From contig CAZRPY010000005.1 in the NCBI GenBank assembly GCA_964602245.1, positions 6,176 to 70,175 on the forward strand: a stretch of 64,000 nt of DNA. The letters are read 5' to 3'. The notes below the pieces were generated by a model. The model saw nothing but the letters and a program-made list of their open reading frames with translations. It did not search any database and was not told the origin of the DNA. The DNA comes from an uncultured Methanosarcinales archaeon (GTDB lineage: Archaea > Nanobdellota > Nanobdellia > Woesearchaeales > JACPIF01). Below, piece by piece: positions 2,571-30,811 of the stretch (positions are counted from its first letter, which is position 1; each line of letters begins with the position of its first letter). The position numbers and the translations under genes are program-made.

Positions 2571-2897
2571 GGCCTAGTAGAAATCCTCTCACTTTCGTTC
2601 GGTTGGCAACAGGCTCGGCTGTCCTTGCTTTACTTGAAGACTGACACATTTCCCGTAACCATGGAAATCAGAGTCCTAAAAATCACATAGTGATTTTGGG
2701 AACTTGAAATCAGCAGATTTCAAGTATTTCCAGGGTGCCAAAAATGCTTTGCATTTCCTAGAAAATCTTTTGGATTTTCTGGACCAGAAAAGCTTGGCTT
2801 TTCTTGGTTTTAGCAGGAACATCCCCTTTGTCAGCTGGTTTGTTTTGGCCAATAAGCCTCGCAAAATTGTTGCCAACTTCAGGATTTCTACTTAGCC
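2571..2897 (-). mobile_element. MITE-like element carrying nested twin-hairpin insertions
   Basis: TIR GGCCTAGTAGAAATCCT / AGGATTTCTACTTAGCC (15/17); flanks TAGAAAAT / CAGAAAAT; architecture matches 5406-5570 in reverse orientation. Confidence 0.75.
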
Positions 2898-2953
2898 CAG
2901 AAAATACATAAATTATTTAAAGAGAGATATATCAATTATTCAAGTGATTATAT

Positions 2954-3166
2954 ATGAAATATAGGATTATATTAGAACAAGATGAGCAAGGGAATTTTGT
3001 AGCAGAATGTCCTTCATTACCTGGTTGTATCTCGCAAGGGAAAAACAGAGAAGACGCTCTAAAGAATATTAAAGATGCTATTCAAGGATATTTAGAAAGC
3101 CTCAAAAAACATAATGAACCTATTCCTCCTTCTATTGAAGAAGAGATGGTAGAAGTAAATGCCTAA
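2954..3166 (+). CDS. hicB: HicB-family antitoxin
   Basis: FVAECPSLPGCISQGKNREDALKNIKDAI motif. Confidence 0.92.
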   Translation: MKYRIILEQDEQGNFVAECPSLPGCISQGKNREDALKNIKDAIQGYLESLKKHNEPIPPSIEEEMVEVNA

Positions 3167-3441
3167 ACTTCCGATTGTTTCTGGAAAAGACTTAGTTAAA
3201 ACATTTGCAAAACTGGGTTATGAAATAGACCACCAAACTGGCTCCCACATTATCCTAAGACATAAACATTCTCCATATCGTAGATTAACAATTCCAAATC
3301 CCTAAAAAATCTAAGATTTTTTGGGTCCCAAAATTTGTAAACAAATTTTTAGGACACAAAGAGATTTCTACAGGCACACTTAGAGCTATTATAAGACAAT
3401 CTGGACTCTCAAGAGTAGAATTCTTGAATATGCTGGAATAA
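3159..3441 (+). pseudogene. hicA: HicA-family toxin interrupted by a 55-bp twin-hairpin insertion (3300-3354)
   Basis: MPKLPIVSGKDLVK..QTGSHIIL..RRLTIPN|HKEISTGTLRAIIRQSGL; removing 55 bp restores a 75-aa ORF. Confidence 0.9.
3300..3354. mobile_element. twin-hairpin mini-insertion
   Basis: CCCTAAAAAATC-TAA-GATTTTTTGGG followed by TCCCAAAATTTGT-AA-ACAAATTTTTAGGA; boundaries set by the hicA frame. Confidence 0.8.
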
Positions 3442-3442
3442 T

Positions 3443-4069
3443 CTAAAACCATCCCTTGCTTCTTGCCACATTCTGCACTACAAGAAACAAAACACTTACA
3501 ACAACCATAGCTCCATAAACCACTTTATTCCACTCAAATATCTTCTTGCCATCAAAGTTCCAGAATGGCAGCATATTGAATAATGCAAGCCAGGAATTTA
3601 TAATAAAGCCGTAAAATGCTATGGTATGCACTGCTCCAGTCTTAAAAACAAATAATCCGAGCAAGAAAACTAATGCAAATATTAAATTAGTCAAAGGCCC
3701 TGCCATGGAAATCTTACCATTCCTTCTCCTGCCAACTGTTCCTTGTATCATAACTGCTCCAGGTGCTGCAAATACAAATCCAAAGAATGACATTGCCAAA
3801 GCCAGCAAAAGCATTGTATCAAAGCTCCTGAACTCAGCAAAACATCCATAGTGCTGTGCAACTATCTTATGAGCCAGTTCATGTACTAAAAACCCTGTCC
3901 CAACTGTAAAAGCAGATATAATAAATGCAAAAATAAATTTTGAACTAAAATCAAAGCCATTAATAAGTATAGCAAATGCAATAGATATAGCTATCCAAGC
4001 TTTAGCTAAGTCAATTATCTCTTTCTCAGATGTCGGAAGTTGCCCTATCCTTATTTCTTTATGCTGCAT
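3443..4069 (-). CDS. M50-family (site-2) membrane metalloprotease
   Basis: HELAH, AGPLTN, FNMLP..DG motifs. Confidence 0.92.
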   Translation of the reverse strand: MQHKEIRIGQLPTSEKEIIDLAKAWIAISIAFAILINGFDFSSKFIFAFIISAFTVGTGFLVHELAHKIVAQHYGCFAEFRSFDTMLLLALAMSFFGFVFAAPGAVMIQGTVGRRRNGKISMAGPLTNLIFALVFLLGLFVFKTGAVHTIAFYGFIINSWLALFNMLPFWNFDGKKIFEWNKVVYGAMVVVSVLFLVVQNVARSKGWF

Positions 4070-4078
4070 TTTTCAGAA

Positions 4079-4648
4079 CTAAACATCTACAAATATCCTG
4101 TGCTTCTCTTCTCCTTGCAATTCTTCCATTATCCTCTTAATTACAACTTTTTCTGGGTCAGGCATTAACTTTACTCTTTCCTTAATGTCTTTAAAGCTCT
4201 CAAAAAGCTTTTGCTGCCTTGCTTCAAGTATTTCCCACATATGCTTCTTCCCCAAGCCAGGCAATAACTCTAATTGGTGCATTCTAGTGCTTAAAGGCTG
4301 AGCCTTGTTAAAGAAATCAATAAACCTTTTCTCATTTTGTTCAACTATATCCTTGACAACAAACTCCAGCTCACTTTTTGCAGTTGCTGTCAACTTACTC
4401 ATTGGCAGCTTTCCCAGAATATGGTGAATCTTATCCCTTTTTCCCTCCCCAATATAAACCTCTTCACCTGACTTAATAGCTGCAGCCTCTTTCTTGGGAA
4501 CCAGTTCAAGTAAAACAAAATGCTCTTTTCCAATTACCTGCACAACAGGCGTTTTCCTGTGGCTTGGCCTTGGATCTAAAGGATAGCCATTTGGCAGGAA
4601 ATCCAAGACTATTGCAGTTTCCTCCTTTGTTTTTCTTTCCAGCAGCAT
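4079..4648 (-). CDS. DUF655 putative nucleic-acid-binding protein
   Basis: RMHQLELLPGLGKK HhH motif; conserved position next to rpoF. Confidence 0.9.
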   Translation of the reverse strand: MLLERKTKEETAIVLDFLPNGYPLDPRPSHRKTPVVQVIGKEHFVLLELVPKKEAAAIKSGEEVYIGEGKRDKIHHILGKLPMSKLTATAKSELEFVVKDIVEQNEKRFIDFFNKAQPLSTRMHQLELLPGLGKKHMWEILEARQQKLFESFKDIKERVKLMPDPEKVVIKRIMEELQGEEKHRIFVDV

Positions 4649-4692
4649 TTTTAATCATGTCCAACATTTTGAAACTAACACAATTTCTATTT

Positions 4693-5031
4693 TTATTCTT
4701 TAATCGCATTAAGTATCTTTTTCAGGTTATCATCGCTGACACTCAGCACATACCCTTGTAAAACAGCCTTCAACTGCTCAATATTATTAGGCATTAAATC
4801 TACTATTTTTGTTAGATGTATTTCCTTTAATCTTGGTATATTCAGTTTTATTATTTTCTCTATTAGCTCATCAGCCTTTTTTGGGCTGAGCTTTACAAAA
4901 TGGTTAAGGTATTCCTCAGTTTTATTTGCCCTAAAGTTCAGTTCTCCATCCCTTTTCTTTATTCTTGCAAGCTCTTCCTTCACCTCTACCATTGTTAAAG
5001 GCTTGTCTCCAAATATCTCAATGCTAGCCAT
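4693..5031 (-). CDS. rpoF: RNA polymerase subunit F (Rpo4)
   Basis: ELNFRANKTEEYL..KIVDLMP; synteny rpl21e-rpoF-DUF655. Confidence 0.88.
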   Translation of the reverse strand: MASIEIFGDKPLTMVEVKEELARIKKRDGELNFRANKTEEYLNHFVKLSPKKADELIEKIIKLNIPRLKEIHLTKIVDLMPNNIEQLKAVLQGYVLSVSDDNLKKILNAIKE

Positions 5032-5321
5032 TATATCCCCCTTAAATGCACAGGATGCACAACTAAAGTTTTTTCTTTATTGCCATCCATTATTTTAATG
5101 CTGTAGCAAGATCCCTGTTGCCCGGTAATTATGCCAACTCTGCCATAAAATCTCAGGTTAAATATCCCTTTATGGACTCTAGGCTCCATGACTAAGGCAA
5201 CTTTATCATTTAAATTAAACTTTTGAAAATATCTTCTTAAGCTGAGTTTACCCCTATCCTTAGTCTCTTTCTTTAATTTATACCTAGATTTCCTTCTCAT
5301 TCCCCCTAGTCTCTTAACCAT
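5031..5321 (-). CDS. rpl21e: 50S ribosomal protein L21e
   Basis: RFYGRVG..GSCY..DGNKEKTLVVHPVHL. Confidence 0.95.
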   Translation of the reverse strand: MVKRLGGMRRKSRYKLKKETKDRGKLSLRRYFQKFNLNDKVALVMEPRVHKGIFNLRFYGRVGIITGQQGSCYSIKIMDGNKEKTLVVHPVHLRGI

Positions 5322-5405
5322 TTTACCCCCTAGTCCTAAACCTATTTAAATCAATTTACTAGCTATTGTATTGCCATACTATTATAAAAAGCTTGCGGAA
5401 AGAAC

Positions 5406-5570
5406 GGCCCTGTCCTAAATAAAGGGTTAGGTCATTTTTGTAAGCATTCTTCAATATACAAAATTACAGTTGACAGGGGGAAGTCCCTTACGGGGATGTC
5501 AACTTAACGGTTTTTACATCAAAATGCGAACCGACCTAACCCCGAGCAAAGCGAGATTTAGGACAGAGCC
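5406..5570 (+). mobile_element. 165-bp MITE with 15-bp TIR and 9-bp TSD
   Basis: TIR GGCCCTGTCCTAAAT / ATTTAGGACAGAGCC; TSD GGAAAGAAC at 5397-5405 and 5571-5579. Confidence 0.88.
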
Positions 5571-5578
5571 GGAAAGAA

Positions 5579-5869
5579 CTATATTTTACGCCATGAATAT
5601 CTAACATTAGGTGGGGTAAAAGTTTCGATAGTATATGCCCCTCCAGTATTAAATCCTACAAGACCCAATGTTCCTAGAGACACTTGGTACAAGGGAAATT
5701 CCTGCCCTCTAAAAGCATTGGCAATCTCAGGCGCATAAGTATAAACAGCTACAAATAGACCAACGAGTGCAAATTGCCATGTTGTGCGTAGCCTTCTTGC
5801 ACGATGCTCTTGCCTTAGCATATCCTCACAAAAAGGAAGCATAAGCTGTTTTTCTAAGGTCATATCCAA
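5579..5869 (-). CDS. hypothetical membrane protein
   Basis: ORF with two hydrophobic segments. Confidence 0.5.
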   Translation of the reverse strand: MDMTLEKQLMLPFCEDMLRQEHRARRLRTTWQFALVGLFVAVYTYAPEIANAFRGQEFPLYQVSLGTLGLVGFNTGGAYTIETFTPPNVRYSWRKI

Positions 5870-6104
5870 TAAAGTGTAAAGCAGGTTTTAATATTTTTTG
5901 TTTTATTACAATTGTCCACTGCGTATGCAAGTAGTCCATTTTGTTCAGATTACAGCTATGATAAGCGGACCAATCGCACCACAAGTTATTACCAACAATT
6001 AATGCACCAGCACCAGTTTCCGATACATTTAAATATACGTTATTCAAAAGATAAGGGTAGCAGTATTTGCTATAGAATCTGCTTTTAAAGAGGAGGGTCT
6101 GAAA

Positions 6105-6509
6105 ATGAAAGGATTTTTTTCAAAAATAATGAAAAGCGTTAAGGCTCCTGCAGCTAGCGATACCGAAGAAGGCTATGTAGAACTTGACACTGAGGGCCAA
6201 GAGTTTAAGTCAAAGATTATTGTCAGGCCTTTTGTGCTAAAGGATTTTGATGATGTAAAAGAGATTCTAGATTCTTTAAGAGAAGGTTATACAATTGCAT
6301 TAGTGAATATTAAGCCTTTAAAAGATAAGGACCTTGTAGAGCTAAAGAGGGCTATTAACAAGCTTAAGAAAACAACAGATGCCATTGAAGGTGAGATTGC
6401 AGGCTTTGGTGAAGATTATATTGTGGTAACGCCTTCCTTTGCCCAGATTTACAGGGCCAAAGAGCATCAGGAAGTAAAAAAGGCCAAGGACGAGATGGAG
6501 CTGGATTAG
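6105..6509 (+). CDS. sepF: cell division protein SepF (DUF552)
   Basis: IALVNIKPL..LKRAINKLK..GEIAGFGEDYIVVTP. Confidence 0.88.
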   Translation: MKGFFSKIMKSVKAPAASDTEEGYVELDTEGQEFKSKIIVRPFVLKDFDDVKEILDSLREGYTIALVNIKPLKDKDLVELKRAINKLKKTTDAIEGEIAGFGEDYIVVTPSFAQIYRAKEHQEVKKAKDEMELD

Positions 6510-6558
6510 AATTTTCTTAGGTTTTATTTAGTCTCTCTAGGTTTTCATTTCTTTTTAA

Positions 6559-6680
6559 CTTGCAACTTTGTGATAGAGTCTATACATGTCAGCTAGAGCA
6601 CTTTACAGCTCTGATATCGTGACTTCGTCCAGAATCACTAATGTGGTTAGCAGACTAACCGCGAGGCTCGTTAATGCAAT
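6559..6680 (-). repeat. structured repeat family 1, copy A (degenerate)
   Basis: TTGCA termini, GAGCCTC, GTAAAGTGC and GTCACGATATCAG shared with other copies. Confidence 0.7.
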
Positions 6681-6717
6681 TATTAATATATAATAAGTAA
6701 TATTATAAATTTGCAAG

Positions 6718-7635
6718 ATGCATAAAATGAGAAATAGCACTAGTGAAAAAGAGATTATTAGAAAATTACCAATATTGCATAAAGGGAATCTCAAAATCAA
6801 GCCTTTGAAAGGTGGAATGACAAATAATAATTATCTTGTTGTAAATAATAGTATTTGCTATGTGGCTCGTTTTGCACCTGAAAAAATAAGAATGCTTGGC
6901 CTGAATAGACAAAGAGAGATATATAATTATAGAATTGCTTCATCTCTAAAAATAGGGCCTAGGTTTATAGCATATTATCCTGCATATAAGCTTCTCATAG
7001 TAGACTATATCCATGGGAAACATATAGATCTAAAAACAATGCAAGATCCTACTATGATTAAAAAACTTGCTCGTTTACTCTATAAATTACACCACGCTAG
7101 GAATATGAAAGGCTCATTTAATCCTTTTAAAAGAGCAAAAAAGTACATACGAACAGCTAAGAAACTAAATAAATGGCTGCCTAAAGGAGTAGAGAAATAT
7201 TTCTCCATTTTTAGAAAAATTGAGAGATTATTCAGCAATAAACAGTTATGTCCTTGTCATTTAGATTTGATGAGAGAGAACATTATTCAAATGCCTAATG
7301 GAGGAATAAAACTTATAGACTGGGAATATGCAAGTAATGCAGATTATAGATATGATCTAGCAATGCTCTCGGTAAAAGGAAATTTTGATTTTAGTGCTGA
7401 TTGGAGATTAGTTAAGGAGTACAGGGGATTTAAAGATGTTAAATTGTATAGACAAATTCAAGCGATGAAAGCTGCTGTTTATTTTGCAGAGGCTTCGTAT
7501 GGTATAGTTCAATTTGCAATTTCTAATGGAAATATAATGTACAAAGATTATGCACTTCTGAATTTAAAAGATTTTCAGAAGGTTATTCCGAAAATTGAAT
7601 TAGATATTAGCTCAAATCAAAAATTATTTAAATAA
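6718..7635 (+). CDS. choline/ethanolamine kinase-like phosphotransferase
   Basis: GGMTNNNY, CHLDL..ENI, LIDWEYA motifs. Confidence 0.88.
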   Translation: MHKMRNSTSEKEIIRKLPILHKGNLKIKPLKGGMTNNNYLVVNNSICYVARFAPEKIRMLGLNRQREIYNYRIASSLKIGPRFIAYYPAYKLLIVDYIHGKHIDLKTMQDPTMIKKLARLLYKLHHARNMKGSFNPFKRAKKYIRTAKKLNKWLPKGVEKYFSIFRKIERLFSNKQLCPCHLDLMRENIIQMPNGGIKLIDWEYASNADYRYDLAMLSVKGNFDFSADWRLVKEYRGFKDVKLYRQIQAMKAAVYFAEASYGIVQFAISNGNIMYKDYALLNLKDFQKVIPKIELDISSNQKLFK

Positions 7636-7656
7636 AGATATTATGCTTTTTGTTCT

Positions 7657-8229
7657 ATGAAAAAGATGAGCAAGGAAAAAAAGAAGGCTGGAAATCCAAT
7701 GCAGGAAGTTGAAGAACTTGAAGAGCTTGACAGTCAGCCTTGTCCATTATGCCATCAAAAAACCTTAATTCTAACTGAATCAGAGACTGAGGTTCCTTAT
7801 TTTGGCAAAGTCTATCTCTACTCTATGACATGTAATAATTGCAAGTATCATAAAGCTGATATTGAATCTGCTGAAAAGAAAGAGCCAGTAAAATATACAT
7901 TTGAGATTTCTTCTGAGAATGATATGAAAGTCAGGGTAGTAAAGTCAAGCGAGGCAACTATTAAGCTTCCTCATATAACTACAATAACACCAGGTCCTGC
8001 ATCTCAGGGATATATAACTAATATTGAAGGGATTCTTAACAGAGTGAAAGCACAGATTGAAACATTAAGAGACACAGCAGAGGATGATGAAGACAAGACA
8101 AAGGCAAAAAAATTATTAAAGAAATTGATAAGAATCAAATGGGGCCAAGAAAAGCAAAAGATAATAATTGAGGATCCTTCAGGCAATTCTGCTATTATAA
8201 GTGAGAAGGCGCAGAAAACGAAATTGTAG
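7657..8229 (+). CDS. ZPR1 zinc-finger protein
   Basis: CPLC..VPYFG..CNNC; ITNIEGIL; IIEDPSGNSAI. Confidence 0.95.
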   Translation: MKKMSKEKKKAGNPMQEVEELEELDSQPCPLCHQKTLILTESETEVPYFGKVYLYSMTCNNCKYHKADIESAEKKEPVKYTFEISSENDMKVRVVKSSEATIKLPHITTITPGPASQGYITNIEGILNRVKAQIETLRDTAEDDEDKTKAKKLLKKLIRIKWGQEKQKIIIEDPSGNSAIISEKAQKTKL

Positions 8230-8280
8230 ATTTATTTACAAAACATTTTTATAGTAGTAATTAAAGAGTTTTACTGCATA

Positions 8281-8849
8281 ATGCAGGGAACTTATTTAGG
8301 TATAGACGAGTCAAATCATGGAAGGTTTCCAGAGATTTTTGTCGGTGTTCTATCAACTGACATTAGTGACACATTTTGGAAACCTAAGCAATTCTCAAAA
8401 ATAAGAAAAATACAGATATTTCAACACTATTAGCAGGAAGAGATTTTAAGTATTTGGCTATACCCTCTGAACTTGGTCTATTATTACCATCAAAAGATTC
8501 AATTAAGATTGTTGCATTCACAGAATTAATAAGGCATTACTTGGCATATGGTCTTAGGGAAGTTTATATTGACGGTGAAATTAGTGATTTTGTCATCGAA
8601 GAGGTAAGAAAGCAATTGTCAGTAATACCTACTATCAAGTATGGAGCTGATGCAGACAGGTCTGTAAAAATAGTTAATATTGCTGATGCAGTTGCGTATA
8701 GATTATTTACATACTATACTGAAACAATAGGTAATAATCATTCTAGATATTCTCAATTTGAGATAACTCCAAATCAAAGTGAATGTACTGCATTAATTAA
8801 ACATCCTAGTTTAGAAGCAAGAGTTACTGAAAAAGTTTTAGTAGGGTAA
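8281..8849 (+). pseudogene. frameshifted RNase H-like (DUF3800/RNase HII-like) gene
   Basis: 5' part MQGTYLGIDESNHG stops at 8433; -1 frame continues from the A5 run at 8406-8410 to ..NIADAVAY.. Confidence 0.6.
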
Positions 8850-8850
8850 T

Positions 8851-9855
8851 TCAATTTGTAACAACAACCCAGTCGTACTTTGGAACAGGTAATACTACTA
8901 TTCTATGTTGCACAGTAGTGTTATTAAGCCCAGGATCGCTAATTGCATCCATAAATTTCTTTGCTATACCTGATATTTCTGCATATACTGCTCCATCCCT
9001 TAGCCTAAATATATCATGACCCTTTCCTTCTGAAACAGCTCTTGATTTGCCTTCAGCAATATATTCCTTTATGCCATCATAAACTCCTTTATATTTAATA
9101 ATCTCTCTAGGAGACATCATGTCCATTACCAAGAATCTGCCAATTCTAAACCCATCTATGATAGTAGTATCTAAATCCTCGTCATGAATCATCTCTGCCT
9201 TTATTTTATCTCTTACATTCTCTATTATTATTTTTTCTATTAATTTAAGCTGCTCCTTTGCAATTCTATACCTTCTAGCATTTAATGGTGTTAATTTTCC
9301 AAAATCTCTTAATGACAAGTTAGCTAATGCTGTAGCATCTTCTAGATTATATTCTGGTGGATTATACTTAATTTCTGGTCTTTTCTCTGCAGTGAACATA
9401 ATCTCCGCTGTTCTAAATTGTCTATAGAGATCTTGAACTGATATATACAGCTTATTGTCTATTTCTAGAACTCCTTCTATCTTCTTGCCTGCTCCCCATT
9501 CACTTAGCATATTGGCCATATATTTTAGCAAACCTCTGCTCATCTCTGCATAGGAAGGGCTAAGTGCAGGTTTTTTCATCCAGAACTGTATATTGCCAAT
9601 CTTTAACTCAAGGCCACCTTTTCCATCTGGCTTTAGATCTCTAACATTCTCATCTTGTCTCCCATTCCATACCTGTACAAGGGTCTTTTCAAAGAAATCT
9701 GTAAAAGAGTCAAGTACTGGAACAGTCCATGTTGTTGCTGCAACATAAAGCTCCAAATCACTCTGCCTTAGATTGTCTATCTCTCTTTCCTCAGCTATTA
9801 CAGCTACATTTAATATATCATCAAATGATAATTGTTGGGAAATTGCTTTTGACAT
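8851..9855 (-). CDS. hypothetical protein
   Basis: Long ORF, likely start MSKAISQQ; no motif recognised. Confidence 0.7.
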   Translation of the reverse strand: MSKAISQQLSFDDILNVAVIAEEREIDNLRQSDLELYVAATTWTVPVLDSFTDFFEKTLVQVWNGRQDENVRDLKPDGKGGLELKIGNIQFWMKKPALSPSYAEMSRGLLKYMANMLSEWGAGKKIEGVLEIDNKLYISVQDLYRQFRTAEIMFTAEKRPEIKYNPPEYNLEDATALANLSLRDFGKLTPLNARRYRIAKEQLKLIEKIIIENVRDKIKAEMIHDEDLDTTIIDGFRIGRFLVMDMMSPREIIKYKGVYDGIKEYIAEGKSRAVSEGKGHDIFRLRDGAVYAEISGIAKKFMDAISDPGLNNTTVQHRIVVLPVPKYDWVVVTN

Positions 9856-9945
9856 AGAACATTTGCAAGTTAAAGAGCTATAAATTTTAATGTGGTGATA
9901 TATATAACCACAAATTATATATAGCCAATTAGCGTTCATTCTGAT

Positions 9946-10668
9946 ATGGATACTGAAATCCTAATAGAGATTGGCCTAACAGCTATAGAAACCAAAGTTT
10001 ATCTCACGCTTTTAGATATTGGGACTTCACTAGCAGGAAATATTGCACAGAAATCAGGGATACATAGGAGAACTGTATACGACGCTCTTGAGAGATTGAT
10101 TGAAAAAGGGCTTGTCACTTATATAAAAATGAATAACAGGCAGTACTACAAAGCTGTGCACCCGTCTAGGCTAAAAGACATATTAAAAGAAAAAGAAGAC
10201 ATTATTAGTAAAATAATTCCTGAGCTTGAAGCTAAATACAATTCATTACAGGAAAAGGAGGAAACATTATTCTTTAAAGGCAGGGAAGGCTTGAAAGCTG
10301 TTTTTGAAGACATGATAAAGAAAAGAGCTGAGATCCTAGTCTTAGGAGCATCTCCTGATGCTTATGATATACTAAAATATTACTTCTTCAAGTTTGATGC
10401 TGAAAGAAAAAGAAATAAAATATCTAGCAAGCTTATTTTCACTGACAGGGCTAGAGGAATAAAAGAGCTTCACAAAGTTCCATTAGCCAAAATCAAATAT
10501 CTGCCAAACAGTTTTGATAATCCAATGGCTATTAACATATACGGCAATAATGTTGCAATTGTCTTGTGGAGAAGTGAAAATCCATTTGCTGTATTAATAA
10601 GAGATGAAGTAGTAGCTAACAGCTATAAAAAGCATTTTGAGCTTATGTGGGGGATTGCTAAGAGATAA
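9946..10668 (+). CDS. TrmB-family transcriptional regulator
   Basis: N-terminal wHTH (GIHRRTVYDALERLIEKGLV) plus PLD-like effector domain. Confidence 0.9.
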   Translation: MDTEILIEIGLTAIETKVYLTLLDIGTSLAGNIAQKSGIHRRTVYDALERLIEKGLVTYIKMNNRQYYKAVHPSRLKDILKEKEDIISKIIPELEAKYNSLQEKEETLFFKGREGLKAVFEDMIKKRAEILVLGASPDAYDILKYYFFKFDAERKRNKISSKLIFTDRARGIKELHKVPLAKIKYLPNSFDNPMAINIYGNNVAIVLWRSENPFAVLIRDEVVANSYKKHFELMWGIAKR

Positions 10669-10712
10669 AGTAAAAATACTAAAAGAATTAAAATAATCAA
10701 AAATAATAAAGA

Positions 10713-10854
10713 TTTGCATACCGGGCACGAACTGCGTGCCTTGCTAAGGTCCGCTTACCACGAATGTAATGAGTGGTTCCGGGACAAAGTCACGATATCA
10801 GTTAAGTATTGTGTGCTAGCGGACAGATATACATGATACACAAACGTTTGCAAA
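10713..10854 (+). repeat. structured repeat family 1, copy B
   Basis: TTTGCA..GGCACG/CGTGCC..GTCCGCT/AGCGGAC..TGCAAA. Confidence 0.85.
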
Positions 10855-10933
10855 TTATCTAACTAAAAGTTTATCAAGAAAAAATATTTAAACCAGCCTC
10901 AAATTCTCTAGTAAATCTCCATGAGGTGTACAA

Positions 10934-16557: not shown

Positions 16558-16567
16558 AATTTTAAAT

Positions 16568-18177: not shown

Positions 18178-18189
18178 ATTAATCAACAA

Positions 18190-21670: not shown

Positions 21671-21686
21671 CGTAAATAATTAATTA

Positions 21687-21779
21687 TAGAGAACTTTGAA
21701 TAATTCATTATTTTGACATTTTTCATTCAAAGTTCTCTTAGAGAATTTTGACTATTGGATAATTTTTCAAAATTCTCTA
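21687..21779. repeat. tandem pair of long hairpins
   Basis: AGAGAACTTTGAAT/ATTCAAAGTTCTCT then TAGAGAATTTTGA/TCAAAATTCTCTA. Confidence 0.75.
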
Positions 21780-21794
21780 TAAAATTTTATTATT

Positions 21795-21902
21795 TTTACA
21801 ATTTTGTGTGAATCTTATATATTTGTCCGCTACTTAACATGAACAAACCACCGAAAAGCGGACCTCTGTATAGCCTCTTAGAGAGGCTCGTTAATGTGCA
21901 AA
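21795..21902 (-). repeat. structured repeat family 1, copy C
   Basis: GTCCGCT/AGCGGAC and AGCCTC/GAGGCT stems. Confidence 0.85.
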
Positions 21903-21930
21903 TTATTAATATCAATTTTTATTATTTTAT

Positions 21931-23307: not shown

Positions 23308-23397
23308 AACAGCACCTTACTTATTATAAATGATTTAAATTTAATTTCTGATTTCTTTGAATTGATTTTTAGTTTATTGATTTTGATTTTTTCTTAA

Positions 23398-23540
23398 CTT
23401 GCAACGATTTGAGCATTTGGAATACTTTTCGTTTACGAAAAGTCAGGAACGCTAGTGACTATACCTGTCCGCTAGCGAACTTTACATATTTGATGAGCGG
23501 ACTATTGTAAAGGCACGTAGTTCGTGCCTCGTAATGCTAA
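23398..23540 (-). repeat. structured repeat family 1, copy D (contains the 39-bp module at 23422-23460)
   Basis: GTCCGCT/AGCGGAC and AGGCACG/CGTGCCT stems. Confidence 0.85.
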
Positions 23541-23581
23541 TTATTATTAATTCTTTATCTATAATCTAGTTAATTCATTTT

Positions 23582-25381
23582 TCAATAAGTCACTTTTAGC
23601 AGCTCAAATTCCTTGTGCATCTCTTTCTCTATTTCATTTAATGCCTGCTCATAATTTTTCTCAAACCTTATATTTGCAATCTTTTGCTTAGCCTTAACAT
23701 TCAAAATATCTCTAACATTTACTCCTCTTGCAAGATTTTCATTGGCAAGCTGTGCATACTTTAATATTATTTTCATAAGCATGTATGTCTTCTTTAGCTC
23801 GCAGTATGTGTCAACCTCATGATATGCATTTTGTTGCAGGAAAAATTCTCTGATCATCCTAGCAACCTCTAAAGTTAATTGCTCTTTGTCAGGCAATGCA
23901 TCAGAGCCTACCAACTGCACTATCTCAAGCAATTTTTCTTCTTCTTGCAGAATTCTCATTATTTTATTCACACTTTCCTTCCAATCTGCTGCAACACTAG
24001 TATTAAACCACTGCTCTAAAGTTGATAGATAAAGGGAATATGATGTAAGCCAGTTAATTGCTGGAAAATGTCTTCTCTGAGCTAGTTTAGCATCTAATGC
24101 CCAGAAAGCCTTTGTTACTCTTAATGTACTCTGTGTTACTGGCTCTGAAAAATCCCCTCCAGGAGGAGAAACTGCTCCTATTACACTAACAGATCCTTCT
24201 ACCTTATGCTTATTACCTTTATTATCTTCTCCTTCTTCACCAGAATCTTTTGCACCTAGTGGAATAACCCTGCCAGCTCTCTCATAAAACTCTGCAAGCC
24301 TTGTTGAAAGATATGCAGGATAACCCTCTTCTCCAGGCATCTCTTCAAGCCTTGAAGAAATTTCTCTCATTGCTTCTGCCCATCTGCTTGTTGAATCTGC
24401 CATTAAAGCAACAGAATAGCCCATATCCCTATAATATTCAGCAATAGTTATCCCAGTGTAAACTGAAGCCTCTCTTGCAGCAACTGGCATGTTAGAAGTA
24501 TTTGCAATCAAAACTGTCCTGTTCATTAAAGGCTGCCCTGATTTAGGGTCAGTTAAATGAGGAAACTCTACCAATACTTCAGTCATCTCATTACCTCTTT
24601 CACCGCAACCAATGTAAACAATAATATCTGCATCTGCCCATTTTGCAAGCTGGTGCTGGCTAACTGTTTTTCCTGCTCCAAAAGGTCCAGGTATTGCAGC
24701 TACACCACCTCTAGCTATTGGAAATAGTGCATCAAAAATTCTTTGCCCAGTCAGCAATGGTGTAACTGGAGCTAATTTCTTTGCAACAGGCCTTGCAGCT
24801 CTTACAGGCCATTTCTGCATCAAAGTTAGTTTTGCTCCATTATCCAGCTTGCAGATTGTTTCATCAACTGTAAACTTACCCTTGGATACCTCAGCAACTT
24901 TTCCAGATATTCCATAAGGCACTAATATTTTATGCTTAATCCCATGTGTCTCTTCTACCTCACCTATAAAATCCCCTTGATGCACAAACTCTCCTTTATC
25001 AACTAATGGTATAAAATCCCATTTCTTGTCTCTATTCAAGCCAGGAGCATTCACTCCTCTTTTAATAAAATCACCCATTGCAGTTCTAAGCTCAGGCAAA
25101 GGCCTTTGTATTCCATCATAAATAGAACTAAGTAGCCCAGGTCCAAGCTCTACTATTAAAGGTTGTCCAGTGTTAACAACAGGCTCGCCTGGCTTTATCC
25201 CAGACGTATCCTCATACACTTGAATAACAGTCTTATCCTCAACTATCTGTATAACCTCTCCCATCAACTTTTCATTCCCAACCCTTACTAAATCATACAT
25301 TCTAGCTGATAGTCCTTTAGCTACTACAACAGGCCCTGCAATTCTGTATATCTTACCTATTAATTCTTTTTCCATTTTCAC
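23582..25381 (-). CDS. atpA: A-type ATP synthase subunit A
   Basis: GPFGAGKT Walker A; GCGERGNEM; no intein. Confidence 0.97.
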
Positions 25382-25399
25382 TTTTTATTTCAACAGATA

Positions 25400-25445
25400 T
25401 CATTTCCGAGTTATACGAGGAAATTAGCGGAACTTTTGTTTCGCT
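25400..25445. repeat. twin-hairpin unit between atpF and atpA
   Basis: ATTTCC..GGAAAT followed by AGCGGAAC-TTTT-GTTTCGCT. Confidence 0.55.
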
Positions 25446-25757
25446 CTATTTCCACAAATCAACTCCTATCGACTTTATTATCATCTGCCTTAATCCTTCC
25501 TCTCTGCCCTCTGTTGATAGCACAACAACACTTGGCTTTACAGAAGTTTCCACAATCTCTCTAAAATTCGCTGATAGCTTACCCATTGTTGTATCATCAG
25601 TTATAATTATCCCAGTATCAGGATTTTCAAAAGCCTCTCTAAATTTATGCTCAGCATTTTCTTCAGCATCAATTATCTTTCTTATCCCAGCTAACTGAAA
25701 GCCCAGGTTAAATTCATTTCCTCCAATAACAATTACTTCATTTATTTTATCGCTCAT
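25446..25757 (-). CDS. atpF: A-type ATP synthase subunit F
   Basis: GFQLAGI..IIKSIGVDLW. Confidence 0.93.
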   Translation of the reverse strand: MSDKINEVIVIGGNEFNLGFQLAGIRKIIDAEENAEHKFREAFENPDTGIIITDDTTMGKLSANFREIVETSVKPSVVVLSTEGREEGLRQMIIKSIGVDLWK

Positions 25758-25870
25758 TTTCTAGTTCTTTTCAATTTTTATTTTTAATTTGCTCGATGCA
25801 AAATTTTTTATTTGTCTAATGCAAATTATTTTATTATTATTATTTTAATAAGTATTAATACCGACTCTAA

Positions 25871-26941
25871 TTATATCAATAATTTCTTTTCTATATATTC
25901 TTCAGTGATACCTAATTGCTTGCCTCTAATAATAGCCTTTAAATTTCTTGCCTCTATATCCTTGGCAAGTAAATATGCAAGTATTGTTTGCGCTGAAAGT
26001 GGGTTTTGATGAGAGTAAAGTGCCGCATTTTGCATCCAAAATCTATCTAGCTCCAGCTCAATATCAACTATCGATTTATTTCTTTCAAATACACTGCCAT
26101 ACTTGGTTCTTTTAAGCTGTTCTATTAGTTCATCTATATTCAAGACTTCTGCCAGCTTTTCCAGTCTCTTTCCTATATGCTGCCCTGAAAATATTAAGAA
26201 CTGCATAGTCTTATTTTTATCAGCGTTAATCCTTTTCAGTTTTAACAGATTTCTAATATTTATCACATCAATCTCTATCCTGAGAAAAGCCTTAAACCTT
26301 TCACCCTCTTCAGGTATACTATCAGCAAACTCTAGTGTCTTGTAAAAGAAATCCTTGTCTAGCTGGTTCTCAATCATTGCTAAATCCTTAGTTTTCTCAA
26401 ACTCTTCAATATTTAGCTTATATCCTAGATTTTTTATTTTCTTTAGAATATCAGACAAAGAATTCATATTAAGTAAATTACTCAGAAATTTCTTGTCAAA
26501 ACTTCCAAGAGGTACTAAAAGATTTTCTGCACTCTTGATATCTTCTATTTTTTGTATCTTATTCTTGATTCTCAAAACTGTTTTTAAATTTTGTATGTCC
26601 CATCTTTTCAAGTAAGCATCTATTAGCTCAACCACTTCTTCTTCTGATATGGTCTTCAGCTTTTTAACAGTTTCAACAAGATTGTCATTTATAGCATATT
26701 CAGCAAGATCAACCCCTCTATGCTTAGAAGCAAGCTTGTCAACCGAAGCCTTATATTCAGTCTCTTGAAGATACCTTACTATACTGATAGTATCCATCTT
26801 TAGCAGTCTAGCATAGTCTTCTTTTTTTATCAGCTTACCTCTCATAGCACTTACTCTAGCATATGTGTAAGGATAAGTTCCCAACTTTATCTTTCTCTCA
26901 AAGTCAAACTTTCTATCAATCTCTTCAATTTTTAGTACCAT
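25871..26941 (-). CDS. atpC: A-type ATP synthase subunit C
   Basis: YPYTYARVSAM..EARNLKAIIRGK. Confidence 0.93.
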   Translation of the reverse strand: MVLKIEEIDRKFDFERKIKLGTYPYTYARVSAMRGKLIKKEDYARLLKMDTISIVRYLQETEYKASVDKLASKHRGVDLAEYAINDNLVETVKKLKTISEEEVVELIDAYLKRWDIQNLKTVLRIKNKIQKIEDIKSAENLLVPLGSFDKKFLSNLLNMNSLSDILKKIKNLGYKLNIEEFEKTKDLAMIENQLDKDFFYKTLEFADSIPEEGERFKAFLRIEIDVINIRNLLKLKRINADKNKTMQFLIFSGQHIGKRLEKLAEVLNIDELIEQLKRTKYGSVFERNKSIVDIELELDRFWMQNAALYSHQNPLSAQTILAYLLAKDIEARNLKAIIRGKQLGITEEYIEKKLLI

Positions 26942-26955
26942 TTTACTTATTTTCC

Positions 26956-27579
26956 TTATTTTCTCACTTTTTTAATTTTGACTTTTCTAGCCTTTTTGCC
27001 TTCTCTCTTTTCTTCACTCTTTGCAAAATCAAATAGCATGCTGCTGATTTTAGTAAGATTTTCTTCCTTATTTTTTTCTAGCAGACTGTTATAGCTCAAG
27101 TCTATCCTGACTGTCTTATCCTCATTTTCAAGTATTAAACCGCCAGAAATATCAGCATTATTAACTGAGAAATTGCCTAACTTCTTTACTAGTTGAGCAT
27201 CATTTTTATTGCAATAAATATGTTTTACTTTAATTTCTCTCTGAGCTTTTTTTAAGAGGTTTGCAATAGTTGTTTTTCTCTCTTGCTGACTAATTCTCTC
27301 AAGCTTATTTCTAACCTTACTCACTACTTGCTCTATAAGATCTTTTTTAGCTTTCAACATAGAATTTCTTGCATCAAGCTTTGCTTGTGATATTTCTTGC
27401 TTGCTCATCTCTTCCATCATCACTTGTGTTTCCTGCATCACTCTCTGTTTTTCAGCATCTGTTCTTCTCTGCATCAGCGTGTCTATACTATTTGCCTCTG
27501 CCTTTGCCTCCTTGAATATAGCATCAGCTCTCTCTTTAGCTCTCCTTAGCACTTCTTCTTTTACCTTCTCAAGCCCCAT
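26956..27579 (-). CDS. atpE: A-type ATP synthase subunit E
   Basis: MGLEKVKEEVL..ISGGLILE..RIDLSY. Confidence 0.92.
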   Translation of the reverse strand: MGLEKVKEEVLRRAKERADAIFKEAKAEANSIDTLMQRRTDAEKQRVMQETQVMMEEMSKQEISQAKLDARNSMLKAKKDLIEQVVSKVRNKLERISQQERKTTIANLLKKAQREIKVKHIYCNKNDAQLVKKLGNFSVNNADISGGLILENEDKTVRIDLSYNSLLEKNKEENLTKISSMLFDFAKSEEKREGKKARKVKIKKVRK

Positions 27580-27631
27580 TTTTCTATCAGCTTCAGCTAT
27601 GCAGGAATATAATAAATAAGCCAGTACTCAT

Positions 27632-27859
27632 TTACTTTGCCATATTTATGATGAATATAGCAACAACTAGTCCAAATATCACAAGAGTTTCTGGAATTAC
27701 AGTTAAAATCAAACCCTTTCCAAATAACTCTTCTTTTTCTGCCATTGCACCTATAGCTGCTGCCCCAATATTTTTCTCTGCAATCCCAGCTGCTATAGCA
27801 CTCAAGCCAATAGCTGCTCCTGCTCCCAGAGCAACTAATCCTGTTCCCAAATCAACCAT
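27632..27859 (-). CDS. atpK: A-type ATP synthase proteolipid subunit K (single hairpin)
   Basis: Two TM helices, IPETLVIFG. Confidence 0.95.
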   Translation of the reverse strand: MVDLGTGLVALGAGAAIGLSAIAAGIAEKNIGAAAIGAMAEKEELFGKGLILTVIPETLVIFGLVVAIFIINMAK

Positions 27860-27945
27860 TTTTAGACCTCCTTATATTTTATAATTAATGTGTTTAATAT
27901 CTGTGCTTTTTCTCTCTTATTTAAACCTTTTTGCTTAATCTGCAT

Positions 27946-29844
27946 TTAATCTTCATATTCACCAAAAGCCCTGAATTTCTTGCCTCCACCTTTATAAAAT
28001 CTTAAAAAAAATTCAACATAATGCAGCCTTAAAGATTGCAGGAAAGGCCCTAATATCCCTAAGCCTAAATTTATAAGATGCCCAGTAACAAGTATCAGCA
28101 TCCCTGCTATAATCATAAATATATTTCCGCTATGGAAAAACTCAAATGAAAACTCATTTACTACTACTGCAAGTAAAACAGATGCTAGTCCTAAAGCTGC
28201 TAGCCTAGCATAGGACAGAGTATTAGTAAGAAGTATAGGCAGCTCTATTAATCCTTTTACTCCCTCGCCTTTCCAAATCATTATAACAGATAGAATACTC
28301 ATAATTAGTCCAATACCAAAAGGGATACTAATAAATTCAAAAGATATATAAGCAGTTATCATAATTGCTATTGCAAATTCCAGTAAAATCCAGCTAAATT
28401 TTTCCAGAATCGCTGCCTTTATCCCATGTGCATTTAACTCATTATAAAAGCCTATCAAAAGGCTAAGATTAATATGCAACAATCCAAATATTATAGAATA
28501 AATCAATATACGATGTATTTCATTTCCTGCAACATTAATCATGTCGTGCTCCCTGCTTATAATAGGTTGAAAAAGTTCATAGCCAAAGAATTCTCCAAAC
28601 ACAAAGCCAAAGATTATTGTTGCTAGTGAAGACAGCATTAATATATTTGATATTTCTTTAGTCTCAGGCATTTTCCACCTTATCAGCAGGAAAATAAGTA
28701 AGCTAATAGCTCCATATCCTATATCTCCAAGCATAAAACCAAAGAATATTGGAAAAGTTAGAAATAGAAAGAAAGTGGGATCTATCTCCTCATATTTTGG
28801 CAAGGTATATAATTTTATCAGGAATTCAAATGGCTTAGTTACCCCAGGATTTCTTAGTTTTATTGGCGCATCTTCATGTTTCCCTGGTTTTTCAATCATA
28901 AAATGAATCTTATCATCAGTCTTCTTCTTTAGCTCAGCATTTAGCTCCATTACTTTATCCTCAGGCACCCAGCCAGTTATCATGAAAAAATTTTCAGTCT
29001 CAGCAAACCTTAATGGCACATCTGTTTTATCTACTTCCTGTTTAAGCACATTTTCAAAATGCAGCAGAAAATCTGCATACCTCTCTTTTATATCATTAAT
29101 ATTATCTTGGACAGCTTTTTTATTAACTTCTAATAATTCTAACTCTTTTCTAAGCCTTTTTAGATTTTCCTGGTTACTGCCACTGATATCATCAGGAACT
29201 TCAATATGTGCAAAATTATATTTTGAAAGTAAAGCCTGAATTTTGTCTTTTACTCTTGTATCAGCAAATAATGCTATAAGCAACTTATTTTTTTCCTTTA
29301 CATATACTAGCTCATAATTCCTAGTTATCTTTCTTATTTCTTTTTCTACATCAACATTATTTACAAGCCCTACAAAATATGCTATTGACTCATACTTAGT
29401 AAAACTTTCAGCTTCAACCTTTAATCTATCAAATATTTCAAGGCTCTTAATCATAGAAGAAATTTTGCTTATTTGCTCATTAATCCTTTTTATCTGCTCA
29501 TTATCATTTGAAAATCTCTCGCTTACCTGGCTGCATACATGGTTAAGCTGCTCATAATCCAATCCCTTTTCTGGCTTGATATACAATTCATAAACCTTCT
29601 CAAGATTAATTTTCTTTTGCTTTATTCCAAGTGTTGATATAATTGCTCTTATCTGCACTAAGATCTCAGAGATTCTTGCAGAATCCTCTAAAGGCCTGCC
29701 AATATCTAGCTCTTCATCTCTAATATGCTCTATTATATGCACAATTTTTCTTTTATGGAGAACTTCAATTGTTGTAGCTATAAATGTCTTCGGTCCTGTA
29801 ATTAAAACCCTCAGCATCCTTTCACTTTTAAGCATAGATCTCAC
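27946..29844 (-). CDS. atpI: A-type ATP synthase subunit I
   Basis: EIDPT..FGFMLGDIGYG; LSYARL; SLRLHYVEFF. Confidence 0.96.
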   Translation of the reverse strand: MRSMLKSERMLRVLITGPKTFIATTIEVLHKRKIVHIIEHIRDEELDIGRPLEDSARISEILVQIRAIISTLGIKQKKINLEKVYELYIKPEKGLDYEQLNHVCSQVSERFSNDNEQIKRINEQISKISSMIKSLEIFDRLKVEAESFTKYESIAYFVGLVNNVDVEKEIRKITRNYELVYVKEKNKLLIALFADTRVKDKIQALLSKYNFAHIEVPDDISGSNQENLKRLRKELELLEVNKKAVQDNINDIKERYADFLLHFENVLKQEVDKTDVPLRFAETENFFMITGWVPEDKVMELNAELKKKTDDKIHFMIEKPGKHEDAPIKLRNPGVTKPFEFLIKLYTLPKYEEIDPTFFLFLTFPIFFGFMLGDIGYGAISLLIFLLIRWKMPETKEISNILMLSSLATIIFGFVFGEFFGYELFQPIISREHDMINVAGNEIHRILIYSIIFGLLHINLSLLIGFYNELNAHGIKAAILEKFSWILLEFAIAIMITAYISFEFISIPFGIGLIMSILSVIMIWKGEGVKGLIELPILLTNTLSYARLAALGLASVLLAVVVNEFSFEFFHSGNIFMIIAGMLILVTGHLINLGLGILGPFLQSLRLHYVEFFLRFYKGGGKKFRAFGEYED

Positions 29845-30158
29845 ACAGCTTTCTTAAATCTCTCTACTACAAAATTAACAGCCTTACCAACATTAGATAA
29901 AGCCTTTTCCTTCATCTTTGCTATCTCTCTTTCACCTGCGATAAGTATTGCCTTTCTTTGCTTCCTAATTTCAGCTCTTTTATCAGCCAGTATGCTTTCT
30001 CTTCTCTGCTCTGCCTCTTTCAAGAATTCTTCATAAGCCTTTATTGCAGATAATTTTGCAGCCTCTATAAGCTCAATCTTTCTTTTCTCAGCATTCTGAA
30101 TTATCTCTCTAGCTTTTTCCTCAGTCTCCTTTATATCCCTTAATAATTGAATGTCCAT
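29841..30158 (-). CDS. atpH: A-type ATP synthase subunit H
   Basis: Charged helical protein at the head of the operon. Confidence 0.85.
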   Translation of the reverse strand: MDIQLLRDIKETEEKAREIIQNAEKRKIELIEAAKLSAIKAYEEFLKEAEQRRESILADKRAEIRKQRKAILIAGEREIAKMKEKALSNVGKAVNFVVERFKKAV

Positions 30159-30286
30159 GCCAAGAAATGTAATCTTATTACACTTTATAAAATTTCTTAT
30201 TTTTGCCTATTAAACCCCTTTTTAAGCTACCTGCTAAAGTCTTAAAAAGGCAAATTTTAAATACTTATTAACATTAAAAGTCTGGA

Positions 30287-30445
30287 ATGGTAAACAGGGT
30301 ATTGATTGGGCTGGGGATTGTAGCTATTGCTTTTATAATCTATAAAATTCTTTATCCCCAAAGCTCCTATGAAGAGGATGTCGAGAAAGAGCTCGAAGAG
30401 GTTGTATCCTCAGATAAGTATAAGGTAAAAGGCCAGTATGACTAA
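30287..30445 (+). CDS. small membrane protein (52 aa)
   Basis: N-terminal TM, ends SDKYKVKGQYD. Confidence 0.6.
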   Translation: MVNRVLIGLGIVAIAFIIYKILYPQSSYEEDVEKELEEVVSSDKYKVKGQYD

Positions 30446-30463
30446 TTCTATTGTCTATAAAGT

Positions 30464-30811
30464 GGCTCTGGTGAGAATAAGTTTTGCCATCAATTATGCG
30501 AGCATTAATTTATTTAAAACATCAAAGTTGACCGGGGGAAGTCCCTTATGGGGACCATAGAAATCAAAGTCCTAAATTTAGAAAACATATTATGTTTTCT
30601 AATATTACAAAACCATAGGTTTTTGTATAAATCGTTATACGATTTTGGGAATATGAAAATCCATAGGATTTTCAAATTAGAGATTCCTTTAGATTCTCTA
30701 AACTTGAAATCAATTGATTTCAAGTATTTCTAGGGTGCCAAAAATGCTTTGCATTTTTTAGCAGGTCAACCATCAGTATTAACATAAAAATGCGAACCGA
30801 TGGCAAAACTT
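30464..30811 (+). mobile_element. MITE-family copy with three-level nested twin-hairpin insertions (30555-30763)
   Basis: Starts GGCTCTG; shares GTTGAC.GGGGGAAGTCCCTTAYGGGG, GTCAAC and AAAATGCGAACCGA with 5406-5570; right TIR not clear. Confidence 0.75.

Follow-up and report, generated by a model that had tools for sequence, protein, structure and literature searches.

Transposase-less derivatives of the IS200/IS605 insertion sequences are known as PATEs. [quoted passage not shown] For bacteria, the relevant part of Di Nocera et al. (PMC3733652) describes REPs paired at a distance of only 1-2 bp, heterodimers, and dimers that lie in frame within genes or are inserted into palindromes. Part of a 2024 review (PMC10969869) reports that Rickettsia palindromic elements insert in frame into protein genes, and the archaeal MITEs listed in that part come only from Sulfolobus, Halobacterium, Haloquadratum, Desulfurococcus and a few others. 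According to a 2022 preprint, REPINs have not yet been detected in archaea. Here we describe twin hairpins of 45-55 bp, below called units, found in a stretch of 64,000 nucleotides of archaeal DNA (the window; positions 6176-70175 of contig C5 of assembly G000) and throughout the genome to which it belongs. The units are mobile elements with exact ends, short family-specific targets and seamless junctions.

The assembly comprises 1.37 Mb in 42 contigs with ~33-34% G+C, and is rated at 100% completeness and 1% contamination. Genes of the window include Rpb4/RpoF, ribosomal protein L21e, DUF655 and SepF (archaeal), and we infer a DPANN-like host. The sequencing runs that contain the stretch are groundwater and lake-water metagenomes. 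Strains were compared on Logan contigs rather than raw reads. Of the sampled words, 92% are found in run X1, which may be the source sample of the assembly; run X2 is a lake-water metagenome from a separate study.

Twin hairpins in the genome

The genome was scanned for two abutting hairpins, with one mismatch or bulge permitted and a gap of -3 to +4, and two third-order Markov shuffles of the genome served as the control. At nine or more pairs per hairpin, 52 abutting hairpin pairs were found, compared to 3 and 0 in the shuffles; at eight or more pairs the numbers are 90 versus 15 and 23. Single hairpins are barely enriched (773 versus 708 and 706). A stricter first scan produced 59 pairs versus 8 and 4, and the foot-to-foot length of these 59 pairs is 43-53 bp, save one of 38 bp, with the mode at 48-49 bp.

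Self-BLAST produced 4638 non-self pieces covering 7.6% of the genome, nearly all of them shorter than 250 bp, and no long high-identity repeats in the assembly. Pieces adjacent in one copy and 15-400 bp apart in the other were chained, and 47 places were obtained where one copy is filled and another empty. The differences measure 31-40 bp in 15 places, 45-52 bp in 18, 97-108 bp in seven, 146-156 bp in four and 210 bp in one; the remaining two (56 bp and 100 bp) are assembly gaps filled with N. Ten distinct twin-hairpin insertions, several of which occur in paralogous copies of a larger repeat, account for all but one of the 18 rows of 45-52 bp; the exception (C3:98836) is AT-rich and has no hairpins. 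Nests of two, three or four units make up the larger classes, and the indels of 31-40 bp are other, smaller elements. None of the 47 places falls in the range of 15-30 bp. Thus single hairpins do not move alone, and the twin is the mobile unit. A preliminary description of the window, made from its sequence, had anticipated a length peak near 50-55 bp and proposed a comparison of filled with empty sites. The mode of the hairpin pairs and the indel peak at 45-52 bp show that a length peak exists, and the 47 places, together with an empty hicA site in a contig of run X2 (see below), provide the comparison of sites.

The genome holds a range of other tiny hairpin elements. A repeat of 34-35 bp, made of a 4-bp palindrome and a 6-bp hairpin, occurs in the window at 58039-58072 (C5:64214-64247) and at C10:1717, C19:1102, C4:42228 and C5:72836. 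It is present or absent within copies of another repeat and has TATA(G) repeats of 4-5 bp at its flanks; it seems to make a target duplication, unlike the twins. Further families of 33-36-bp inserts, with one or two short hairpins each, also have filled and empty copies; examples of 31-36-bp inserts are C3:60905-60938, C4:47022-47054, C9:5245-5280 and C12:12444-12479.

Nested arrays

Two arrays of nested units, compounds A and B, lie in the window in different host repeats (Table 1). U1 of compound A, 53 bp long, consists of the hairpin CCATGGAAAT..ATTTCCAGGG followed by the hairpin TGCCAAAAATGC..GCATTTTTTAGCA. U2 is folded with -14.7 kcal/mol as DNA (z = -8.1), and the z-score of U3 is -7.4. 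Every boundary within the two compounds is fixed by copies that lack the inner unit. U1 without U2 is found at C23:10222-10271, U2 without U4 or U5 at C12:24443-24489, and U2 with U4 but without U5 at C3:56380-56500, where U4 differs by one base. The second hairpin of U1, which harbours U3 in compound A, is uninterrupted in compound B. Contigs of run X2 join position 2673 to 2726, skipping the 52 bases of U2, and position 2755 to 2808, skipping the 52 bases of U3 with 1 nt of ambiguity; given their short sides of 22 and 26 letters, respectively, they probably come from other copies. Contigs of run X1 match 2651-2778, 2784-3127 and 3106-3500 with zero differences.

The nest of U2, U4 and U5 has a second copy, which begins ~80 bp past the end of the window. 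The two 156-bp copies (30570-30725 and C5:70257-70416) are 100% identical within an alignment of 169 bp, and each occupies the same relative point of a different host hairpin (CCATAGAAATCAAAG^ATTTCTAGGG and TTTCGAAAATCAAAG^ATTTTCGAGAC). The nest moves as a single piece, bounded by its outermost ends. Tandem arrays of four hairpins were also observed, for example at C1:272505-272598 and C20:1727-1822.

Much of this had been noticed in the preliminary description. The sequence of both compounds stands as described there, as does the presence of one unit within the first hairpin of another in both of them, and their origin by independent insertion into different host repeats is supported. The extra units specific to one compound (U3, U4 and U5) are real, with boundaries now refined by the empty copies and the X2 joint. 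Among the three solitary units proposed, the one at 3300-3354, which lies in hicA, is well supported, the one at 62828-62878 is uncertain, and the one at 25400-25445 lacks support as a member, since it folds weakly (z = -4.3) and was recovered neither by the scan nor by the covariance model. The GC-richer hairpin pair at 62828-62878 may be a distant member.

Table 1. Units, arrays, host repeats and hic genes in the window (positions in the window; R2 is the covariance model introduced below)
Feature	Position	Strand	Description
Host MITE-like repeat 1	2571-2897		Terminal inverted repeats of 17 nt (2571-2587, 2881-2897; 88% complementary); carries compound A
Compound A	2659-2815	+	157 bp = U1 53 + U2 52 + U3 52; U2 in hairpin 1, U3 in hairpin 2
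U2	2674-2725	+	52 bp; at AGAG^ATTT of U1 hairpin 1, between loop and 3' arm
U3	2756-2807	+	52 bp; in the T-run (other strand: A-run) of U1 hairpin 2
hicB antitoxin gene	2954-3166	+	HicB_lk_antitox, E 6.1e-11
hicA toxin gene, split	3159-3441	+	Pieces 3159-3299 and 3355-3441
U6	3300-3354		55 bp; nearly dyad-symmetric twin hairpin inside hicA; fold z = -6.3
Host MITE-like repeat 2	30478-30812		14-nt perfect inverted repeat; basic form ~125 bp, many copies without a compound
Compound B	30555-30763	+	209 bp = U1 53 + U2 52 + U4 53 + U5 51
U2 with U4 and U5 nested	30570-30725	+	156 bp; inside U1
U4	30577-30629	+	53 bp; at CCTAAA^AATC, A-run of the 5' arm of U2 hairpin 1
U5	30651-30701	+	51 bp; between the two hairpins of U2
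GC-richer twin hairpin	62828-62878		Fold z = -5.3; not among the R2 matches listed at E<=0.01

A second copy of host repeat 1 is located at C3:48814-49136 (96% identity). An open reading frame (ORF) of 242 aa on the minus strand (1921-2649) begins within host repeat 1. Its true start is probably an internal methionine (MIEKIKG...), and the repeat may supply or disturb the 5' region of this gene. Copies of host repeat 2 exist in which its positions 1-77 and 288-335 abut, the net insert being 210 bp. Dozens of diverged copies of this repeat, with a central GTCCC-TTAC-GGGAC hairpin, are present in the genome, and U1-type units occur at two different points of that hairpin in separate copies (window, C23:10222 and C17:20357).

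Units in genes

U6 interrupts the toxin gene of a hicBA pair. The hicA frame as present stops at a TAA codon (3303-3305), two codons into the insert. A 618-nt contig of run X2 covers the same locus, matching 2924-3299 with 19 differences and 3355-3500 with one difference, and omits exactly the 55 bases 3300-3354, with 1 nt of ambiguity. Since precisely this segment is skipped, the hicA frame is whole in the X2 relative. Contigs of runs X1 and X3 contain the filled site, and one contig of X3 spans it. The Pfam profile HicA_toxin is matched over its positions 1-38 before U6 and 39-58 after it, and the hicA homologue of genome G028 is uninterrupted across the insertion point. Thus no hicA codon was lost or gained. 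The event is exact to the base, whether this genome gained U6 or the relative lost it. Inspection of the sequence lends no support to either splicing of the insert from the RNA or its bypass in translation: the flanks show no pairing with the insert, and matching take-off and landing codons were not seen.

Most of the 90 units lie outside ORFs of at least 90 aa (69 units, with 16 inside and five at edges), and such ORFs make up 84.6% of the genome. Units kept in real genes preserve the reading frame. In ORF C3:120898-121233, a net insertion of 51 bp adds 17 residues in frame, and a paralogue on C5 lacks them. A 54-bp unit (C14:23941-23994) lies in frame within an ORF of 651 aa on C14. Another twin hairpin was observed in frame within an ORF of 542 aa (C1:107710-107761). 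Units can thus break genes or lengthen them in frame, even in very compact genomes.

Structure and sequence families

Each hairpin has an A-run in its 5' arm and a T-run in its 3' arm, whichever strand is read. The apex has the form AATC-loop-GATT in 44 of 92 hairpins of the 46 best units. The feet differ by family yet remain complementary, and hairpin modules recur with different partners across units. The preliminary description had seen a class defined by size and structure; this view needs amending, as the shared apices and clear sequence families demonstrate that size and structure alone do not define it.

Most hairpins have an extra base. A one-base bulge was recorded in 56, and 47 of these have it on the outer arm, namely the 5' arm in first hairpins (26 versus 4) and the 3' arm in second hairpins (21 versus 5), at a distance of 2-3 pairs from the foot. 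The unit thus resembles two polar hairpins joined as an inverted dimer.

RNAalifold applied to a plain MAFFT alignment of 39 units predicted no structure, because the hairpin arms were misaligned. Covariance models were built instead from a seed of five gapless units (R1), through a model-guided alignment (A4) to the final model R2. In A4, which contains 46 matches from 39 places, both-sided changes occur at 21 of 21 model pairs, and 94.7% of cells pair, compared to 71.8% in shuffles and 34-68% with slid partners. The loci were picked by the hairpin scan and fitted to the model. Hence the covariation demonstrates one fold across different sequences and not the existence of the fold.

Conserved hairpins of mainly intergenic location raise the possibility that the units are fixed functional motifs, such as terminators, operator pairs or structured RNA, or else an artefact of assembly. 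The conserved AATC-loop-GATT apices and the T-runs on both strands would fit a fixed motif. However, the sites are polymorphic, filled or empty, both within the genome and between strains, one gene is disrupted, and the nests are carried by independent contigs. Rfam 15 produced no match at the gathering score in the window, and a search with six units produced a single match at chance level (E 0.3). A terminator role was considered separately and rejected. The 38 units assigned to an intergenic class comprise 29 between tandem, five between divergent and four between convergent genes, and the intergenic DNA of these classes amounts to 108 kb, 50 kb and 28 kb, respectively. The four convergent cases compare to ~5.8 expected from intergenic base pairs, so convergent ends are not enriched. 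This explanation is largely refuted, and we consider it scarcely tenable.

Targets and junctions

The insertion sites of the U2/U6 family are compound A, compound B, C5:70257, C12:24443, C3:56380, C3:34326, hicA and C24:3627. Read with the TCCTAAA end of the unit first, all eight are G^A and seven are G^ATTT, the eighth being G^AAAT. Seen from the opposite strand, G^ATTT is AAAT^C, with the unit placed after AAAT. The sites in hicA and at C24:3627 are non-hairpin DNA with the same kind of target. The preference for hairpin targets that had been proposed earlier is better read as a choice of short sequences that the stems and loops of the units happen to contain.

Six insertions represent the CC-foot family (units such as CCAAGAAAA.., AGCAAGAAA..). 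Five of them interrupt the A-run of a hairpin arm at AAA^AAT, with one A that could belong to either side, and the remaining one lies in a loop at GTAA^AGGG. The TAGG family has the consensus G[CT]TTCGAAAA..TTTTCGAG[GA]C + TAGGAAATC..GATTTCCTA. Among its 17 oriented seeds, 13 end in ATG and three in TTG, and ATG precedes eight. Two empty sites have a single ATG and the filled sites have two. This may be a 3-nt duplication, or else an element with ATG at its own end may have inserted after ATG. At a few TAGG places the junction repeats are longer (6-10 nt) and resemble what is left of a neighbouring unit.

The targets G^ATTT, AAA^AAT and ATG^ occur in the stems, loops and ends of the units themselves, which accounts for the nesting and for the four-hairpin tandem arrays.

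No regular target duplication was observed. The ambiguity at the insertions is at most 1 nt, with the exception of the 3-nt ATG repeat of the TAGG family, so that the absence of an obvious duplication, as originally stated, holds for most insertions. The longest direct repeats across unit boundaries are the same as in offset controls, bar a tail of four places with at least 7 nt versus one per control. All four belong to the TAGG family.

The lack of duplications speaks against a DDE enzyme as the mover of the twins. Such an enzyme is encoded in the window: the gene at 34018-35115 on the minus strand specifies an IS4/IS5-like transposase of 365 aa, the sole DDE_Tnp_1 match in the genome. A gene for a Cas4-like PD-(D/E)XK nuclease (189 aa) directly adjoins it, both lying within 34018-35694 on the same strand. 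The presence of this gene and the terminal inverted repeats of host repeats 1 and 2 would fit units that are ordinary MITEs moved by such a DDE transposase. However, the U2/U6 and CC-foot insertions have no target-site duplication, their targets are oriented and non-palindromic, 45-55 bp is below the usual size of MITEs, and the assembly contains no long high-identity repeats. We regard ordinary MITEs as a highly improbable explanation.

The junctions also bear on an explanation without any enzyme, namely that template switching in replication or microhomology-mediated repair copies units at hairpin-prone DNA. It would account for the reassortment of hairpin modules, for microhomology of variable length at some junctions, for the frequent location of units within similar hairpins, and for the fact that no transposase correlates with units. 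It accounts poorly for ends that are exact to the base in independent events, for the constant size, and for oriented targets of 3-5 nt that include non-hairpin DNA. Moreover, the 156-bp nest moved with the same ends as a 52-bp unit, and the direct repeats at junctions exceed the controls only in the small tail. Copying of this kind appears improbable.

Occurrence in related genomes

Model R2 has at least 126 matches in the genome at E<=0.01, both strands being counted and 150 of 1722 candidates scored; these are read as ~65-70 places. Relatives were sampled by taking 100 other genomes of the order (0.6-2.7 Mb), one per family. At E<=1e-5, matches were found in 43 of the 101 genomes: 50 in G000, 27 in G003 and 1-8 in each of the rest. 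At E<=1e-3, the numbers are 82 in G001 and 76 in G002, both of the same genus, and 98 in G003; among complete genomes, G018 has 25 and G027 none. Twenty matches that were retrieved are true twin hairpins of the same style. In a sample of the phylum, 12 of 121 genomes matched at E<=1e-6, and all 12 belong to the order of the host; the lineages of the 89 unlisted genomes are not given, and hence the sample is silent on other orders. The family is old, is spread through the order of the host, and has expanded in the host genus and in G003.

Candidate mechanism of movement

The units are probably non-autonomous twin-hairpin mobile elements of 45-55 bp, which may move as a folded single strand with the aid of a hairpin-recognising enzyme provided in trans. 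Each element consists of two abutting imperfect palindromes of ~21-29 bp and ends exactly at the hairpin feet. The single strand, folded into hairpins, would be nicked and joined in trans by an enzyme of HUH/Y1 type or by a functional analogue. Each family uses its own oriented target (G^ATTT for U2/U6, AAA^AAT for the CC-foot family, ATG^ for the TAGG family), and insertion or excision is seamless to within 1 nt, save for the ATG repeat of 3 nt in the TAGG family. With targets inside the elements, units land in or beside units and build recursive nests, and a nest then moves by its outermost ends. Four features suggest the single-strand step: hairpins at the ends, an extra base close to the foot, targets that are oriented and non-palindromic, and the absence of duplication. 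Taken by itself, movement through a folded strand with a hairpin-recognising enzyme for nicking and strand transfer is a serious possibility, though one that falls a little short of probable.

Several results weigh against this reading. Profile searches of the genome for Y1, DDE, recombinase, reverse transcriptase, IS110, Rep-Arvir and TnpB enzymes identified no mover. The sole Y1_Tnp gene (C3:96165-96509) has GC-rich end hairpins of IS200 type that do not resemble the units. Among the 101 genomes, Y1 genes occur in 36, units in 43 and both in 15, compared to 15.3 expected if they were independent, and G002 (76 matches) as well as the complete genome G018 (25 matches) bear units without any Y1 match. 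No gene of the host genome is flanked by units, and seven unit pairs in G001, G002, G003 and G018 enclose only housekeeping genes or genes of unknown function. There is no orientation bias with respect to local GC skew (20 versus 12 in family A, even numbers in family B). The cleavage sites of IS200/IS605 elements lie some bases away from the hairpins, whereas the hairpins of the units extend to the very ends. Most units are unique in sequence, and recent bursts of copy-and-paste were not seen. The covariation was measured at loci selected as hairpins and aligned by the model, so that pairing is partly built in. Finally, the comparison of strains was made on assembled contigs, and X1 may be the sample from which the genome came.

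The Y1 gene deserves particular attention, since its product, or that of similar copies that come and go, could move the units in trans, as RAYTs are thought to do for REPINs. The gene is intact (141 aa, motifs HVH and YIKNQEKHH), the unit-rich genome G003 has a close relative of it, and seamless oriented insertion beside a target of 3-5 nt is typical of Y1 elements. With its GC-rich flanking hairpins, the gene looks like part of an IS200-type element. Similar copies of the transposase (C3:96114-96539) are found in G003, G069, G075, G080 and G081. In the part of Quentin et al. (2018) that concerns the signature Y---Q--HH, it characterises subclass 1.2, low-copy genes without insertion-sequence properties, mostly from Cyanobacteria and Bacteroidetes (PMC6006769). 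The match of the present gene to this signature is a lead only. Against a role of the Y1 enzyme are the unlike end hairpins and the IS-like 3' end common to the copies of G000 and G003, the independent occurrence of Y1 genes and units, the unit-bearing genomes G002 and G018 that lack the gene, the stop codon in the copy of G001, and the absence of flanking units. The resident gene is a poor candidate for the mover, and this explanation is unlikely. The preliminary description had likened the units to REP/REPIN elements moved by HUH enzymes and suggested a search for Y1/HUH genes flanked by such hairpins. The structural likeness is retained, but the link to HUH enzymes is not supported, given the unrelated ends of the Y1 gene and the lack of co-occurrence, and no such flanked gene was found in the genome.

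Another possibility is that a tyrosine recombinase, Xer-like or another integrase, works on the folded units in the manner of integron integrases, whose attC substrates are structure-defined hairpins with extrahelical bases. Four tyrosine-recombinase genes were identified, two Xer-like (280 aa) and two integrase-like (~420 aa). Xer-like genes at C14:31977-32453 and C22:1165-1644 have no similarity at the DNA level. The extra base near the hairpin foot would suit such an enzyme, and the repeats of 3-10 nt shared by TAGG junctions are what a common core would give. However, the joined ends of the U2/U6 and CC-foot families share no core with their targets, and cassette arrays are absent. With tyrosine recombinases in 89 of the 101 genomes, the co-occurrence profile is uninformative. 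We consider a recombinase quite unlikely.

In the genome the profile searches found no reverse transcriptase, no IS110 DEDD enzyme and no DUF7845 or Rep-Arvir protein. The best serine resolvase match has only 16.6 bits and falls under the cut-off, and the Y2_Tnp profile had zero matches in any genome scanned, so that its lack of a match in this one carries no weight. A match to 'Cas12f1-like_TNB' beside units on C1 was rejected, as it is a zinc-ribbon ORF of 47 aa and not TnpB.

Overall, the observation made in the preliminary description is confirmed, and its interpretation is partly supported. A bolder form of the mobile-element reading is that the units are a REPIN-like lineage of replicators indigenous to small-genome (DPANN-like) archaea, and that the enzyme moving them has so far escaped recognition as a transposase. 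There would be no RAYT or Y1 link, the target would be written in the element itself, and nests would act as new, larger elements. This is doubtful at present.

Comparison with known systems

To our knowledge, mobile DNA of ~50 bp is near the smallest known, and movement without a linked transposase has been an open question since REPs and the small repeats of cyanobacteria were described. In the present system, naturally filled and empty sites reveal the ends, the targets and the rules of nesting to the base. The host comes from a lineage of small-genome archaea for which a REPIN-like system has not been reported, and this offers a concrete starting point in the search for the mover. Comparable elements in archaea are not described in the main texts of the literature searched.

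Small, non-autonomous, AT-rich, intergenic and structured, the units resemble classical MITEs. However, terminal inverted repeats related to insertion sequences and duplications of fixed length are absent in most unit families. With IS200/IS605 elements and their transposase-less derivatives they share end hairpins, the lack of usual terminal inverted repeats, the absence of duplication and oriented insertion beside a target of 3-5 nt. They differ in that their ends are unlike those of the resident insertion sequence, the hairpins are at the very termini and there is no association with Y1. Integron attC sites are single imperfect hairpins that end cassettes in arrays beside intI; the units are twins, scattered or nested, and bound no cassettes. 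Rickettsia palindromic elements are ~100-150 bp long and encode a conserved peptide, whereas in-frame copies are a minority here and one unit breaks a gene. In behaviour the nearest are the SDRs as reported for cyanobacteria; the present units differ in being twins of 45-55 bp and archaeal.

The closest structural parallel is provided by REP dimers and REPINs: short imperfect palindromes paired in inverted orientation, which are bulged close to the foot and number in the dozens or more. REPs are imperfect palindromes of 20-40 nt, present in many copies and mostly extragenic. The hairpins of the units are ~21-29 nt, and 69 of 90 units are outside long ORFs. As in REPINs, the inverted pair is the mobile entity, indels being twin-sized and never single-sized, and the extra base marks the outer arm in 47 of 56 bulged hairpins. 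On the other hand, the tags GT[AG]G and CGTC each occur at one of 184 unit foot windows. There is no RAYT (class 2 Y1, Y---NP), the sole Y1 motif being YIKNQ in a gene without flanking units, and the units are ~50 bp long compared to ~100 bp for REPINs. Since they have neither the tag nor a RAYT, we do not file them as REPINs. They are a real and well-defined family of ~50-bp twin-hairpin mobile elements of the REP-dimer kind, from a lineage not previously known to have any.

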